A stretch of 64,000 nucleotides of DNA from a virus. Shown here in pieces: positions 19,108-59,074 of this stretch; positions within the stretch are counted from its first letter, which is position 1, and every line of letters begins with the position of its first letter. A model generated the notes under the pieces. That model saw nothing but the letters and a program-made list of their open reading frames with translations. It was not told the DNA's origin and did no database searches. The translations under genes and the position numbers were made by a program. Where the stretch lies: IMG/VR virus record IMGVR_UViG_3300043772_001024, positions 47,743 through 111,742 of that record. One strand, given 5' to 3'.

Positions 19108-19650
19108 TTAACAATTAGTACAAGTTAATTTATTTAAAAGCTTAAGTGCATAATTGTACAAGCTCATTCCTTTCTGAGGCTCATGACAATATTCTACTTT
19201 TGCTTTTGCAGCTTGAAGATACATATTAATTAATCTTAAAGCTTCTAATTTCTTTTTGACTGCTGCTGGCGGATCACATGCTGCAGCATCTACATCACAC
19301 AATACTTTATTGTACTTTATTAAAGCTTGTGTAATTCTCATATGGTTGTACTCTACATATACTTGATCATTAGGAGATACACTATACTTAATGATGTATA
19401 TACCATCAGGTATATCATAGTTAATTGTACCGCAATCTACAGTTTGTAACTGAAGGTCACATGCAGTTATTGTCTCCGCAAAGTTTTCAGTAGTATCTAG
19501 CTGTACTGAATATCCAAATCCAGGTACAGTAATGTTTAATGTAGGACAAGATACCGGAAGTAATGGTGTATAAACACTTGTATCAAATAACTTCATGATA
19601 CATGAGTTCATCACAGTAGGTACTTCTAAACTTAATACATGATTTGCCAT
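19108..19650 (-). CDS. Putative structural protein
   Basis: 180 aa; IPDGIYIIKYSV motif; in the structural operon. Confidence 0.6.
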   Translation of the reverse strand: MANHVLSLEVPTVMNSCIMKLFDTSVYTPLLPVSCPTLNITVPGFGYSVQLDTTENFAETITACDLQLQTVDCGTINYDIPDGIYIIKYSVSPNDQVYVEYNHMRITQALIKYNKVLCDVDAAACDPPAAVKKKLEALRLINMYLQAAKAKVEYCHEPQKGMSLYNYALKLLNKLTCTNC

Positions 19651-38065: not shown

Positions 38066-38130
38066 TTTATATATTTTAAAAGTTTAAGCAAATATACAAT
38101 TTTATGTTTAAACTAAATATATTTAAAACA

Positions 38131-38160
38131 AAAAATCCAGGCATACAAAGTACCTGGATT
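38131..38160 (-). terminator. Intrinsic terminator
   Basis: AATCCAGG/CCTGGATT hairpin plus U tract. Confidence 0.75.
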
Positions 38161-49333: not shown

Positions 49334-49576
49334 TTATTCTATAATTTCAAATTCAACATCTTCAAATTCTGCCTTTAAAAAGTAATCTATACCTCCCCAA
49401 CATTTACCATCAATTTCTATACAAGTATCATTATGAACAAACCCTGTACAAGTTCCTAGTATCTTATCTGGATTATGATAACTGACTACTCTATCACCAA
49501 TTTGATAATTAATCTGAGGTTCAATATATATATTGTTATGCATCATATTTTTGTGTTGTTTTAGGTGTTTTGTCAC
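49334..49576 (-). CDS. Hypothetical protein
   Basis: 80 aa ORF (true start probably MMHNN). Confidence 0.5.
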   Translation of the reverse strand: MTKHLKQHKNMMHNNIYIEPQINYQIGDRVVSYHNPDKILGTCTGFVHNDTCIEIDGKCWGGIDYFLKAEFEDVEFEIIE

Positions 49577-49844
49577 TTAATTCTTTTTCTTCAATAAAGT
49601 TATCAAGCAAATTCAACTTAAGCTTTTCTAATAAACCTATGAGAGCTAGATTACCATGGGCATTCTCACCAACTCTAACTTCTAGTCCTTCTTCTTTCTC
49701 AGTGATGGACAACAACACTTTATCTGACATATTAATTAATTTACTTAGTTTATCATAAAGCTCTCTTGCTTCCAGGTTGCTACCCCCAAGAACTCTAACC
49801 TCCTTGGTAATCTTTTCCCACAACAGTTTTTGCTGTGGACTCAT
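49536..49844 (-). CDS. Hypothetical protein
   Basis: 102 aa downstream of the promoter at 49890. Confidence 0.6.
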   Translation of the reverse strand: MSPQQKLLWEKITKEVRVLGGSNLEARELYDKLSKLINMSDKVLLSITEKEEGLEVRVGENAHGNLALIGLLEKLKLNLLDNFIEEKELSDKTPKTTQKYDA

Positions 49845-49917
49845 CTCATGTAAAAGGGATTGAAGTGATCATACAAGTTGTTGGTGTTACAAATATAAAA
49901 ACTTTTTTTGTTTAAAC

Positions 49918-49980
49918 TAAAAACCCCAGAAAAAATTTCCAGGGCTCTTAGCTTATTAATCAATCAAAGTAAATATGAAC
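49918..49980 (-). ncRNA. Candidate sRNA C
   Basis: TATATTTG (49985-49992) upstream, GU-containing terminator hairpin (49919-49946), no ORF. Confidence 0.45.
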
Positions 49981-49997
49981 TATGCAAATATAATAAA

Positions 49998-50630
49998 TTA
50001 TTCTGTATCATAAAACATTCTTTCAGAATCTTCTGTATGCCACTTATCAAAACCCTCACAATTGTACCACTCTTTGTTAACCAGATAGTCAGGTTTCTCA
50101 GGGAAAGGCTTGGTTACAAAGCTTGGCTCTGACCACTTGATCCGGTTATTAGGTTGTAGAGCAATCTGTCCATTATCTAAAAGTATTATGTGATGGCTCT
50201 TATGCTCCATAGGATCTTCTGCTAGAGATAGATCTGTGTTAGGATCATTAGACCCCCAGTTAATAGTAGCATAGTAACTACCCTGGTAGAACTTATGGTC
50301 CTTCATATACACTTCTACTTTGGTATCATACAGATATGACAAATGCAGTAGAGTAAACTTGTAGGAGAAACAGTTCCAGATCTGCAGATAATGAAAAGGT
50401 AAATCTGGATCCGGTAACTTAGGTTCTGTCAATAGGGCATGGGATGGTAGTTTATCTCTGAGAACTCCATTCTCAAGGAGCACCTGGAACAATGCAGCTT
50501 GTCCCGGCATACACCTTACTGAAATAACTACCCCCGGGGTAAATTCCCCCAGACCTTTCTTACCCTGATACATATACTCATTCCTAACAAACACCTTGAG
50601 AGGAAAAAAATTGTGTTCTATATAAGCCAT
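49998..50630 (-). CDS. Conserved phage protein of unknown function (start MAYIEHNFFP)
   Basis: ATG at 50630, 4 nt after TATATTTG; the longer track ORF would cross a terminator. Confidence 0.7.
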   Translation of the reverse strand: MAYIEHNFFPLKVFVRNEYMYQGKKGLGEFTPGVVISVRCMPGQAALFQVLLENGVLRDKLPSHALLTEPKLPDPDLPFHYLQIWNCFSYKFTLLHLSYLYDTKVEVYMKDHKFYQGSYYATINWGSNDPNTDLSLAEDPMEHKSHHIILLDNGQIALQPNNRIKWSEPSFVTKPFPEKPDYLVNKEWYNCEGFDKWHTEDSERMFYDTE

Positions 50631-50641
50631 AGTACAAATAT

Positions 50642-50709
50642 AAAAAAAATCCTGGACTGTAACATCCAGGACTTTCCACCCAGTCCGTTGACCAGGAAAC
50701 ACATATCTA
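50642..50709 (-). ncRNA. Candidate sRNA B
   Basis: TATATTTG (50714-50721) upstream, TCCTGGA/TCCAGGA hairpin plus U8. Confidence 0.45.
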
Positions 50710-50722
50710 ATTACAAATATAC

Positions 50723-50794
50723 AAAAAACCCCGGTACATTATACCAGGGCTTCTTGCTCATCAATTTAGTTTTTAATTATGTCACCATAATCCT
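50723..50794 (-). ncRNA. Candidate sRNA A
   Basis: TATATTTG (50799-50806) upstream, CCCTGGTA/TACCGGGG hairpin plus U6; only a 3-codon ORF. Confidence 0.45.
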
Positions 50795-51175
50795 AGAACA
50801 AATATACCAACTTATTTTTAACTACCAAATTTTATAGCATGTGATGGCTATTGATTTTATTATAAGTAGTAGCATGTGATGGGGTATGTATGGATGAGCC
50901 CCACCCTCAGCCAGAATTGGTGGTACCCCCCATGAAATCTATACAGATTAAAACTTTTTGGGTATGAAAATAATATTTTTTGTACAGGTAAAAGTATCTG
51001 TTAACAGTCTATGATCTAGCTACAACTTAGTACTATGATTAGTATAGTATAGTATGTATATAAGACACAAGCACAGGTGGTACTGGCAACCATGTCTATA
51101 TATCTAGCTGGCAAGCAACCAACAACATTGTATATATACAGCTCTATACTATTATTAAATATAAAATTAATAGTT

Positions 51176-51340
51176 ATGGATAACACTTGCCCAACATGTA
51201 ATATGGAATATGATATAGATATCAATTTCAATGAAGAAACCAACTCATATGATGCAGTTAAAAAATGTATTTGTGATTATATGAACATGTTCTATGAACA
51301 TGATTCACAAATGGAAAAAGAATATGAGTTACCCTTTTAG
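51176..51340 (+). CDS. Small early protein (CxxC..CxC; ends ELPF)
   Basis: ATG 41 nt after the motif start; MDNTCPTCNMEY...EKEYELPF. Confidence 0.7.
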   Translation: MDNTCPTCNMEYDIDINFNEETNSYDAVKKCICDYMNMFYEHDSQMEKEYELPF

Positions 51341-51401
51341 GGTAGCTTATATTTATGTTATATACAGCTCATTACTATTATTAATTATAAAATTAAACAT
51401 T

Positions 51402-51590
51402 ATGAAAGTATTTGGATTATTTAATATGGTTGCTGCTTATATATGCACCATAATTTGTATTGTTAGTGTAACATATTATGTAGCATTTGAAGCTATGTAT
51501 GCTAATGCGTTTATCATGTCTTTAGCAGGATTTGCTATGTTTATGGTAGCAAGAACATTACACACTGAATGGAGACAAGGGAAGCTATAA
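51402..51590 (+). CDS. Small early membrane protein
   Basis: MKVFGLF..., two hydrophobic helices, ATG 41 nt after the motif start. Confidence 0.7.
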   Translation: MKVFGLFNMVAAYICTIICIVSVTYYVAFEAMYANAFIMSLAGFAMFMVARTLHTEWRQGKL

Positions 51591-51654
51591 GGCTTCTCTT
51601 TCTCTTTGTGTATTATACAGCTTTTCACTAGTATTAATCTTAAAACTAAATATC

Positions 51655-51723
51655 ATGGTATCTTATGTAATCATCAATGGAATTGTAACAGTTAAAGAAT
51701 GGGTATTAAATCCCAATGCTTAA
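51655..51723 (+). CDS. 22 aa early peptide (not in ORF track)
   Basis: MVSYVIINGIVTVKEWVLNPNA; own motif 41 nt upstream and own hairpin terminator downstream. Confidence 0.6.
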   Translation: MVSYVIINGIVTVKEWVLNPNA

Positions 51724-51798
51724 CTTGAAGTGTCACTTTAATAGTGGCACTTTAACTTTTTGATATACAGCTTATTACTAATCTTAAATTAAACAATT

Positions 51799-52017
51799 AT
51801 GATAGCACAGATTATTTTTATTTGGTATCTCATTACAGGGACTGTAGTGTACCAACATGATGTTGAAGGTAGACAAACTTATGCTCTATTCTTTCCTGAT
51901 GGGAAGGTAGTTGATTATGCTTATAAGGCAGAAATCATAGAGTATATAGAGACCGGAACATTTGAGTATGATGAAACTTTGGAAGACAAAGTTACTGATG
52001 CAGATAAGGGGGAGTAA
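51799..52017 (+). CDS. Small early protein
   Basis: 72 aa in a motif-ORF-hairpin cassette. Confidence 0.7.
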   Translation: MIAQIIFIWYLITGTVVYQHDVEGRQTYALFFPDGKVVDYAYKAEIIEYIETGTFEYDETLEDKVTDADKGE

Positions 52018-52069
52018 TCCCCTTTATACTTATACAGCTTTTAACTAGTATTAATTAAAACTATATATT

Positions 52070-52342
52070 ATGGAAACAAGAATTGACAAAAGTGAAGTTA
52101 CTCAAAGTTTATTAAACAGAATGAGTTATCTAGATAAACATACTATGGTATGTATGATACAGATACTTCAATCAAGAATAAACCTTCCTGATAGTGCTTA
52201 CACTAAATGGGGTAATGAGGCTTGGATAAGACATGTTGCAGATGCACTTAATGAGTATCTGGATATCAAAGAAAAGAATGATAAAAACATGAGAGCAGCA
52301 TTAGCTAATATGCAAGATGCCTATGAGAATCCAGAGTATTAA
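52070..52342 (+). CDS. Small early protein
   Basis: 90 aa in a cassette. Confidence 0.75.
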   Translation: METRIDKSEVTQSLLNRMSYLDKHTMVCMIQILQSRINLPDSAYTKWGNEAWIRHVADALNEYLDIKEKNDKNMRAALANMQDAYENPEY

Positions 52343-52408
52343 GGGGGAGTAATCCCCTTTTTTTTCTTTTATACAGCTTTTTACTAGTATTAATTAAAAC
52401 TATATATT

Positions 52409-52705
52409 ATGACAGATTTTATTCATACAGGTTGGTGGGCACCTACATTAACTACCACTGAAGATCCTTTGTTAAAAGTTATTGAAAGAGACAATGGTGT
52501 TTCTTGGACTATAACCTTTTATGTAGGAGAACACATCATAGATTGTATTAACATGGAATGGTGTCGTGGTACTAAATTAGACAAGGATGTCCTTAGACTT
52601 CCTGTGTATAGTGATGAAGGTATATACTTAGGTAGCCTTGCCAAAAGATTGGAAGATGCTATTAATGTGATGTATCCTGAACCTATGTTCAAGACAGGGG
52701 AGTAA
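52409..52705 (+). CDS. Small early protein
   Basis: 98 aa in a cassette. Confidence 0.75.
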   Translation: MTDFIHTGWWAPTLTTTEDPLLKVIERDNGVSWTITFYVGEHIIDCINMEWCRGTKLDKDVLRLPVYSDEGIYLGSLAKRLEDAINVMYPEPMFKTGE

Positions 52706-52790
52706 TCCCCTTTTTTTGTATAAGGTGCTTTGCACATCTTGTTTATACAGCTTTTTACTGCTTGGAGTATTAACCAATAAATTATTTATT

Positions 52791-53102
52791 ATGAAAGTTC
52801 AAGGAACATTAGTGTCAGTTAGCAACACAGTAAAAACAGCTAACAGTGAGAATGCATCTGAATACCGCACTTGTGTAGTTAAGTTAGCAGACGGTAACAA
52901 CTACTTTGCAAAGATTTGGGAAAAGAGCTTCCAAAGAGGTGTTGAGATTGGTGCTGAATATACCGTTGAGGGTCAACAAGACGGTGACAATATTTGGTTA
53001 ACCGTGTTGAATGGTGCAGATGCCCAAGTTGCTACTGTTGCCAACCTTGGTGCATTGTTTGGTGTTGCACAAAACACTCTTGCTGAAGAACCATTGTTCT
53101 AA
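52791..53102 (+). CDS. OB-fold-like early protein (possible ssDNA-binding)
   Basis: MKVQGTLVSVS...YRTCVV...AKIW...GVEIGAEYTVEG; acidic-hydrophobic tail EEPLF. Confidence 0.6.
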   Translation: MKVQGTLVSVSNTVKTANSENASEYRTCVVKLADGNNYFAKIWEKSFQRGVEIGAEYTVEGQQDGDNIWLTVLNGADAQVATVANLGALFGVAQNTLAEEPLF

Positions 53103-53185
53103 TGTGAGTAATATAGCCCGTACATAGTGCGGGTTATATTTTTTTTATAAAGGCCTTCGGCAACTTGTTTGTACAGCTTTATACT

Positions 53186-56892: not shown

Positions 56893-57002
56893 AGTCCCAT
56901 AGCTCAGTTGGTAGAGCGGAACCTCTGAAAATGTAAAGGATAGCCTGTTAGGGCATGCAATACATCAGGTTCAGGTCACAGGTTTGAATCCTGTTGGGAT
57001 TA
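56893..57002 (+). tRNA. tRNA-like gene (Phe-GAA-like) with a ~35 nt insertion in the anticodon loop
   Basis: Acceptor AGTCCCA/TGGGATT, D-arm GCTC-AGTTGGTA-GAGC, stem GAACCT/AGGTTC, variable loop AGGTC, T-arm ACAGG-TTTGAAT-CCTGT; no encoded CCA. Confidence 0.7.
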
Positions 57003-58476: not shown

Positions 58477-58510
58477 TACCTGAATTGCAATAAAGGTATT
58501 TACAACTTAT

Positions 58511-58594
58511 CACTTAGACTGAGTAACTAGGTGTATAGTAAAAATCTACTCAAACAATCAATTATTTATTTATTTATTTTTAAAACTTAAAGTT
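58511..58594 (+). promoter_or_regulatory. H-type pseudoknot plus AU-rich leader
   Basis: Stem 1 58511-58517/58527-58533; loop TGAGTA pairs with TACTCA at 58547-58552. Confidence 0.45.
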
Positions 58595-59074
58595 ATGAAC
58601 ACAAAAGTTAAAGTTGTAGCTGATGCTACTACAGGATCTGTAATTACATTATCTGGTAATGCACAATTTGGTTATGTAAGATTAGAACAAGTTAGATCTG
58701 TCATTGATGACAATGGTTTCTTACGTAGAAAAGCAGTTAGCACATTAATTCATGGTGACATTAATGAGTTAAAAGCTATGAATTTTTATGCTGGACAAGA
58801 GTTACCAGGACAAATTGTAATTAAAGAAGCTTTAGAGCCATTTAATTCTAAAACTCCTGAGCGTGATCTTAAAGTAGCAGGTTCTACTGGTATAGTATGT
58901 ACTTTTGAAGGTGCACCTATTTACCGTAAAACTGTTTATACAACAGCTGCAAATGCACAAGACATACTTATCAAACATGATAATGTAAATCAGTTGCGTG
59001 AAGCTTATGCTGTGCAATCAGGTACTTCAAGTGCTATAAACAATGCACGTCCAGCTGAAGACTTATCTATCTAA
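58595..59074 (+). CDS. Hypothetical, possible ssDNA-binding protein
   Basis: 159 aa beta-rich; strong terminator downstream; pseudoknot leader. Confidence 0.65.
   Translation: MNTKVKVVADATTGSVITLSGNAQFGYVRLEQVRSVIDDNGFLRRKAVSTLIHGDINELKAMNFYAGQELPGQIVIKEALEPFNSKTPERDLKVAGSTGIVCTFEGAPIYRKTVYTTAANAQDILIKHDNVNQLREAYAVQSGTSSAINNARPAEDLSI

Follow-up and report, generated by a model that had tools for sequence, protein, structure and literature searches.

Candidate small RNA genes in a promoter-terminator array of a distant crAss-like phage, one of them a putative antisense RNA to an early gene

A chain of short units at the head of the minus-strand arm

The stretch of DNA analysed here, which we call the window, comprises 64,000 nucleotides (bases 47743-111742) of the 111,742-bp IMG/VR virus record IMGVR_UViG_3300043772_001024, whose completeness is estimated at 94%. 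Within 917 bp of its minus strand lie five copies of a promoter-like box, TATATTTG, numbered P1 to P5 in the direction of transcription, and three short units that each run from a box to a terminator; we refer to these as units A, B, and C, with a 210-aa gene between B and C and a 102-aa gene behind P5 (Table 1). Minus-strand genes occupy the window from position 1 as far as about 50700, plus-strand genes take over at 51077, and because the coding strand switches there, the array stands at the head of the minus-strand arm, adjoining the divergent region. Our reading of this array, to which we would give about an even chance of being right, is that it holds three self-contained small non-coding RNA genes of about 64-73 nt and that the RNA of unit C would act in trans as an antisense RNA to a 159-aa early gene on the other arm. 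That the array makes small regulatory RNAs is probable.

The large terminase of this genome is about 25% identical to terminases of crAss-like phages of Bacteroides and Flavobacterium, and PHROG matches were obtained for portal, terminase, and head proteins. Judged from its sequence, the genome is that of a distant crAss-like phage, and its promoter motif points to a host among the Bacteroidota; no match at the DNA level was found to the nearest phage records. In the crAss-like phage phi14:2, a virion polymerase produces the early transcripts and the host polymerase the middle and late ones (10.1101/2020.03.07.982082). A second motif, TACARCT-N4-ACT, occurs 11 times in the window where 0.6 matches are expected, with 10 copies on the plus strand of the early arm (51021-53185 and 58501-58514) and one at 19492 on the minus strand, and is probably an early promoter type distinct from TATATTTG.

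All five boxes of the array fit TAnnTTTG, the consensus of the -7 element recognised by the primary sigma factor of the Bacteroidota, sigma-A or sigma-ABfr (PMC7366714). The exact sequence TATATTTG occurs 17 times on both strands of the whole 111,742-bp genome, so that about 0.07 copies would be expected in 917 nt of one strand as against the five seen (Poisson P about 1e-8 per window of that size), and the clustering is therefore far above chance. A canonical -33 TTTG, which we looked for about 19-21 nt upstream of each -7 box, is present at P1 alone, with a 19-nt spacer, and is missing from P2-P5; the -33 motif was not recovered in Flavobacterium (PMC7366714). A further word, AGTTTAAAC, lies between a terminator and a TATATTTG box at two separate promoters of the minus strand (38096-38160 and 49898-49916) and may be an upstream promoter element.

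Each unit ends in an intrinsic terminator, a GC-rich hairpin followed by a U-tract, whose structure is kept in relatives, and these three are among just seven strong minus-strand terminators in the minus-strand gene block (genome 18.7-98.5 kb). The distance from the end of the box to the end of the stem is 73, 67, and 64 nt for units A, B, and C, the RNA 5' ends being placed about 5 nt downstream of the box, and the U-tracts of units A and B directly adjoin the next TATATTTG box. The fold z-scores of the three are -6.8, -4.0, and -3.8; no shuffle out of 200 gave an equally good fold. A sequence-only reading of the window had described a modular chain of short promoter-terminator units, candidate small RNAs transcribed by the host polymerase, with the U-tract running into the next promoter in the first two. 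Both the chain and these junctions are as it described them, and the units are self-contained and ORF-less, with host-type promoters and intrinsic terminators.

No credible open reading frame (ORF) was found in units A, B, or C: frames of 28-40 codons cross terminators and promoters and are not kept in relatives. Peptides from frames in units B and C were rejected on the loss of those frames in relatives, and an ORF on the opposite strand beginning with ATGAAC was rejected since its distance from the box shifts by 1-3 nt and the genes upstream are not the same. In an Rfam search of the window at gathering score, the sole match was a tRNA at 56893-57002 on the plus strand (51.6 bits); its span is 110 nt and it therefore carries an insertion, and ARAGORN reported none in the window. 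The 12 sub-threshold Rfam matches obtained in 49700-51150 at E up to 10 include nothing credible and no FopS, and a search of the related loci gave no matches.

The strong P1, with its full -33/-7 pair, is followed immediately by a terminator at the start of a gene block of about 50 kb running in one direction, an arrangement that would also suit cis-acting leaders, i.e., promoter-proximal terminators that a phage antiterminator reads through (as with the lambda pR'-tR' 6S RNA and Q) or attenuators. However, a box of the TAnnTTTG type follows every terminator and only 4 nt separate P3 from the ATG of the 210-aa gene, so read-through is unnecessary, and the genes downstream are not promoterless and dependent on read-through as in lambda-type antitermination. 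Attenuation was rejected as well, since units A and C have no alternative structure competing with the terminator and the sole possible alternative pairing in unit B (GGACUG/CAGUCC) is lost in two relatives (L005 and L129). We regard cis-acting leaders as very improbable.

Table 1. Features of the array and of the proposed target of unit C, in window coordinates.
Feature	Position	Strand	Basis
P1 -33 TTTG	50826..50829	-	19 nt upstream of the -7 box; upstream part homologous to unit C module promoters in relatives
P1 -7 box TATATTTG	50799..50806	-	exact match, TAnnTTTG consensus
Unit A, predicted RNA of ~73 nt: 5' hairpin, AU-rich linker, terminator	50722..50794	-	fold -26.8 kcal/mol, z -6.8
Terminator A (AAGCCCTGGTAT / GTACCGGGGTTT + U-tract)	50726..50752	-	hairpin and fold
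P2 -7 box TATATTTG	50714..50721	-	exact match
Unit B, predicted RNA of ~67 nt: single-stranded 5' part, conserved hairpin, terminator	50643..50709	-	fold z -4.0
Unit B hairpin 1, CCTGGTC-AACG-GACTGGG	50679..50696	-	kept in relatives
Terminator B	50647..50674	-	compensatory U-A to C-G change in relatives
P3 -7 box	50635..50642	-	4 nt before ATG of 210-aa gene
210-aa gene, phrog_3704	49998..50630	-	PHROG E 2.2e-62
P4 -7 box, unit C	49985..49992	-	exact match
Unit C, predicted RNA of ~64 nt: unstructured 5' 28 nt, terminator	49917..49980	-	fold z -3.8; 41 homologues
Unit C 5' island GTTCAT, complement of ATGAAC	49975..49980	-	nearly invariant in alignment A1
Unit C second island GATTGATT, complement of AATCAATC/T	49958..49965	-	conserved in homologue alignment
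Terminator C	49921..49947	-	fold and pairing in 41 sequences
P5 -7 box, 102-aa gene	49890..49897	-	exact match
102-aa gene	49536..49844	-	listed ORF; preceded by upstream ORF
Early-type promoter-like motif TACAACT-N4-ACT	58501..58514	+	in front of 159-aa gene
Proposed unit C target site: AATCAATT in leader, AAAGT, TATGAAC over start codon	58556..58600	+	two-motif pattern, duplex
159-aa early gene	58595..59074	+	own early-type motif

Conservation and exchange of the units among relatives

Loci of relatives were collected by way of the 210-aa gene, short DNA patterns, and neighbouring genes. In 34 distinct relatives, the slot behind a conserved landmark of the divergent region, ATGGGGGGTACC, holds a varying set of ORF-less promoter-to-terminator units. 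Some resemble unit A and share the CCCTGGTA/TACCGGGG terminator but have unrelated bodies, others are copies of unit B, and still others end in TAGGTAAGGAAA and a terminator. Conservation is confined to the promoter boxes and the terminator stems, the latter with G-U pairs and compensatory changes, and bodies vary; constant promoters and terminators around variable bodies are what the sequence-only reading had predicted for relatives. The array is genuine and its design is conserved, and the slot behind the divergent region appears to be a hotspot in which these phages maintain and trade genes for RNAs. The slot of some relatives (L006 at ~1330-1600, also L289, L230, L297, L301, L307, and L362) also contains a structured RNA of about 200-260 nt that is not in the focal window; it has conserved GCATACCGTAAGATCTGC and AAGTTTCTCTGATCAAGAATTACT ahead of its terminator and no Rfam match.

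For unit C, 41 distinct homologues could be aligned. Its terminator is 98.9% paired across the 41 sequences, with G-U pairs that fit this strand only; in one alignment (A3), variable loop lengths put the terminator out of register. The unit is found behind at least three different upstream genes, and in 11 of the 13 loci collected through the 102-aa gene alone it stands directly upstream of P5 and that gene. Among the 11 copies of unit C found through a neighbouring gene, the P4 box fits TAnnTTTG in 10. Divergence was measured in 18 genomes with a common upstream gene, whose 4-fold sites, with a pairwise difference of 41%, served as the neutral yardstick. Against that figure, the P4 box differs by 0%, GTTCAT by 7%, and the 5' stem arm by 15%, while the spacer differs by 50% and the middle of the unit C body by 69% (indels counted). 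Because the first three differences are low against the neutral 41%, selection acts on the promoter of unit C, on the six bases that open its predicted RNA, and on its terminator, and the rest is free to change.

Unit B is represented by 11 distinct sequences, the window and ten relatives, in which its two-helix structure is 97.1% paired. Changes on both sides were seen at three pairs (C-G to A-U, U-A to C-G, and A-U to G-C), hairpin 1 itself showing C-G to A-U and G-U to A-U or G-C, and none of 500 shuffles reaches the covariation score. As the search word had fixed the inner three pairs and the loop, only the remaining positions were counted as evidence. The hairpin is also kept where terminators have changed and where the downstream genes differ (at least three genes). 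Because pairing is kept with compensatory changes, unit B would be a conserved structured RNA and, on this comparison, is a separate RNA with two conserved hairpins. It carries an AUG in sense orientation and is not antisense to a start.

Unit A has a different history. P1 and unit A align with the unit C cassettes of relatives from the -33 region through the terminator, with alignment scores of 57-74 as against 26 +/- 4.4 for shuffles, none of 300 of which reaches them. On this alignment, unit A is a diverged paralogue, a duplicate of the unit C cassette type. The body of unit A has diverged, relatives do not conserve it, and the CAU of the unit is located inside the predicted 5' hairpin.

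The same comparisons bear on the main rival to our reading, especially where unit A is concerned, namely that the units are swappable terminator-promoter cassettes, comparable to the T4-type promoter-stem-loop repeats, and would serve to insulate accessory genes and shuffle them by recombination, so that any short RNAs would be by-products of emptied cassettes. Units are gained and lost exactly between TATATTTG boxes, as in one relative (L003) that lacks unit B and another (L039) that lacks unit C and has P5 directly after the gene; the slot in relatives holds small ORF cassettes or other units; the terminator-promoter junctions are near-identical repeats; and the body of unit A is not conserved. 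However, an idle promoter should decay, yet P4 is invariant against the neutral difference and GTTCAT is kept too, and the hairpin of unit B persists ahead of different terminators and genes with its compensatory changes. Cassettes of this kind would also leave unexplained why unit C is complementary, in an orientation-specific way, to the start of one gene, as described below. We consider this explanation unlikely for the array as a whole.

The position of the array allows one further explanation, in which the short transcripts would prime or activate a replication origin in the manner of T7 phi1.1A/B or the T4 ori(uvsY) R-loop. The minimum of the cumulative GC skew falls at about 50.3-51.3 kb of the window, adjoining the array, the bodies of units A and C are AT-rich, and the divergent region has a conserved GC-rich landmark. 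In contrast, the coding strand switches at the skew minimum and such a switch can by itself produce one, strong terminators release the RNA, and a unit C that occurs behind at least three upstream genes does not mark a fixed site. We see very little likelihood in an origin-priming role. The GC-rich landmark itself (about 50840-50935 on the minus strand) begins with ATGGGGGGTACCACC, followed by two copies of CCATCACATGCTA, and is conserved across a large phage group; it lies at the skew minimum of the genome and may be an origin or operator region.

Proposed pairing of unit C with the start of an early gene

Two units had been proposed in the sequence-only reading to be antisense to sequences resembling translation starts, on the grounds of their complements, and the complements it quoted for units A and C (ATCAATTTAGTTTTTAATT-ATG-TCA and AATCAATCAAAGTAAAT-ATG-AAC) are correct. 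For unit C, the proposal gains a candidate target, the leader and start of the 159-aa early gene. It is not supported for unit A, where the CAU is enclosed in a predicted hairpin, the body is not conserved, and no phage target stood out. That reading had also found no convincing full target in the window, whereas the candidate target of unit C lies inside it.

The two islands of unit C, GTTCAT and AATTGATT (the complements of ATGAAC and AATCAATT), had been defined before any target was considered. The pattern AATCAAT-N(5-35)-ATGAAC has just two copies in the window, where 0.24 are expected: one is the complement of unit C, and the other is the plus-strand site at 58556-58600, in which ATGAAC is the start of the 159-aa gene. 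As an early-type motif precedes this gene at 58501-58514, AATCAATT sits in its leader.

Ten relatives have both a GTTCAT-type unit and the 159-aa gene, and in these we ranked all places complementary to the unit on both strands of the 11-19 kb locus. The start region of the 159-aa gene comes first in four relatives, second or third in four, and sixth to eighth in two. Alignment z-scores for these GTTCAT-type units are 1.9-5.8, as compared with -0.6 to 1.8 for head and variant units, and reversed, sense, and complement versions of the unit C bodies score lower in all ten. With the focal genome included, predicted duplex energies in the 11 genomes are -13 to -23 kcal/mol versus about -8 +/- 2.5 for shuffles, at most 4% of which do equally well, and nucleotide 1 of the RNA pairs with position +6 of the 159-aa gene in nine of the 11. 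Individual relatives arrive at the match in different ways: in L226, 16 of 18 contiguous bases match; in L289, the leader is the same except that its (ATTT)n tract is deleted (pairing is longer in these two relatives); and L217 has a different start region and a unit that matches it. Above-chance, orientation-specific complementarity, as expected of an antisense small RNA, is thus found for the unit C family in relatives and is marginal for the focal copy, whose duplex of -12.8 kcal/mol compares with -7.3 +/- 2.3 for shuffles (1.5-2.7% of shuffles equal it).

Five complete genomes permit a further comparison. At the target, ATGAAT and AATCTATT are found in the three genomes that lack unit C, as against ATGAAC or ATGAGT, and ATCAATT, in the two that possess it; that the presence of unit C tracks the target sequence is only a hint from so few genomes. 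Taken over the relatives, the complementarity indicates that the unit C family is very probably the antisense partner of the start of the 159-aa early gene, and a phage gene rather than a host gene is the likely target of unit C. Because the complements of unit C resemble shortened copies of the leader, we infer inverted copying as their source, and the resemblance suggests that unit C originated by inverted copying of the leader of the 159-aa gene.

Several observations weigh against an antisense function of unit C and, more broadly, against regulation in trans by the array. Some relatives are wholly without unit C, so the unit is dispensable. In the focal genome, the pairing has decayed to three short patches, GUUCAUA:UAUGAAC, ACUU:AAGU, and UGAUUGAUU:AAUCAAUUA, and loops out 25 nt. 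Ordered by alignment score, this site comes only 20th among the 121 translation starts and 234th in the whole genome, and unit C forms duplexes of lower energy with other starts. The comparison of cognate with non-cognate pairs yields a permutation p of 0.067, with L217 as the single clear co-varying case, and the relatives are kin rather than independent samples. The leader of the target gene, AU-rich as it is, behaves as somewhat 'sticky': control sequences rank it anywhere from 2nd to 293rd, mostly 10th to 150th. Lastly, targets were not found for units A and B or for unit C variants lacking GTTCAT.

The wider searches were negative as well. For head units, unit B, and TTTTCGATTA-type variants, the top-ranking places were within what is expected of a maximum over thousands of scan windows, and no phage target of unit B was found. 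The focal genome shows no enrichment of start-codon complementarity over shuffled controls, an outcome that the sequence-only reading had named as refuting its proposal: against its 121 phage translation starts, the fraction of shuffles that equal the real unit is 0.27 (A), 0.79 (B), and 0.50 (C) by energy and 0.11, 0.11, and 0.17 by alignment. The neighbouring P5 leader and the upstream ORF within it were rejected as targets of unit C, the pairing there being just 5-8 nt with no consistent pattern.

Units A and B, and possibly C, might instead be aimed at host mRNAs or host RNA-binding proteins; host mRNAs, for example those of defence genes, had been suggested in the sequence-only reading. 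Their architecture is the same as that of the host RNAs FopS and GibS, units A and B are without a phage target, and host targets that change over time would fit with unit A, whose body varies on a conserved scaffold. On the other hand, no Rfam family matches the array, and the anti-AUG of unit A lies inside a hairpin. We think host targets quite unlikely.

Returning to unit C as an antisense RNA to the early gene, the system could work as follows. Each unit would be transcribed from a promoter of the Bacteroidota sigma-A type (TAnnTTTG) up to its intrinsic terminator, at the head of the arm that the host polymerase would transcribe. The unstructured 5' end of the unit C RNA (GUUCAUA...) would pair over the start codon of the 159-aa gene at 58595, and its second island, UUGAUUGAUU, with AAUCAAUU in the leader. 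The RNA made from this host-type promoter might thereby block ribosome entry on the early mRNA, and the 159-aa gene would be turned down once the host polymerase transcribes the phage. As for the product of this gene, the protein has no Pfam or PHROG match, and its AlphaFold2 model (pLDDT 81.8) yields weak fold matches (Foldseek E of at least 0.17; VIA-align Z no higher than 4.7, 49 residues being aligned at 3.6 A), of which many are to OB-fold SSB or PriB proteins.

Flanking genes and comparison with known systems

The 210-aa gene, which matches phrog_3704, has 389 relatives in IMG/VR; its protein has no Pfam or PDB match, and the searches gave no family that would point to a function. Because P3 lies so close to the ATG and this spacing is kept in most relatives, a leaderless mRNA is likely. 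In the relative L008, a small membrane ORF has the same spacing to its box. In many relatives, a further gene, with an HExxH-like motif (..AVMHETMHMS..), is inserted after unit B and ahead of the 210-aa gene, directly upstream of phrog_3704 in L007, L011, L013, L015, and others; the focal genome does not have it. The P5 leader contains an 8-codon upstream ORF, MITSIPFT (49872-49846, minus strand), which stops 1 nt before the ATG of the 102-aa gene, and similar short ORFs are kept upstream of this gene in several relatives.

In the T4-type promoter-stem-loop cassettes and in phage morons, terminator-promoter repeats flank small, swappable, ORF-carrying units in a hyperplastic region. The array is like these in its repeated terminator-promoter junctions and in the presence and absence of units between close relatives, but differs in that its units are ORF-less and that parts of their bodies are under selection. 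The closest phage analogue in function would be the c4 antisense RNA of phages P1 and P7, a short RNA with two separate patches of complementarity, by which it targets the ribosome-binding region of a phage gene in trans. The c4 RNA is cut out of an operon leader and is located upstream of its own target, whereas the units of the array each have their own promoter and terminator and lie 8.6 kb from the target, on the other arm.

How crAss-like phages are regulated after the early phase of the virion polymerase is poorly understood. Phage phi14:2 has abundant non-coding RNAs of no known function, which are long and intergenic and present from the earliest sampled time point (10.1101/2020.03.07.982082). 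They resemble what is predicted for our array in being intergenic non-coding transcripts of a crAss-like phage with a Bacteroidota host. Unit C and the leader of the 159-aa gene offer a concrete candidate pair of RNA and target that is conserved across many uncultured relatives. As a more general and tentative suggestion, which may well prove wrong, crAss-like phages of environmental Bacteroidota could possess arrays of evolvable small RNA cassettes on an unchanging scaffold of promoter and terminator. The cassettes would arise as inverted, shortened copies of the leader and start codon of an early gene of the same phage, would shut that gene off when transcribed by the host polymerase, as an RNA-based switch from early to middle expression, and could duplicate (as unit A would have done) and drift to new targets.

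The nearest counterparts in architecture are FopS and GibS of Bacteroides thetaiotaomicron, RNAs with a TAnnTTTG promoter, a single-stranded 5' seed, and then only a terminator, which occur as multicopy paralogues and whose seed, by base-pairing with the start codon or its immediate surroundings, blocks translation of mRNAs lacking a Shine-Dalgarno sequence (PMC11697453, PMC7366714). Unit C resembles them in its TAnnTTTG promoter, its unstructured 5' seed followed by a terminator, the complementarity of that seed to a start-codon region, and the existence of a paralogue, unit A. In contrast, the array is encoded by a phage and theirs are chromosomal, and the proposed target is a phage early gene where theirs are host mRNAs of the susC type. 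Because no Rfam model matches it at E up to 10, the array is not a member of the FopS or GibS families, and the resemblance of unit C to FopS is by analogy one of working and not of family membership. If the proposed pairing is true, seed-plus-terminator RNAs in the style of the Bacteroidota are used by their phages too.

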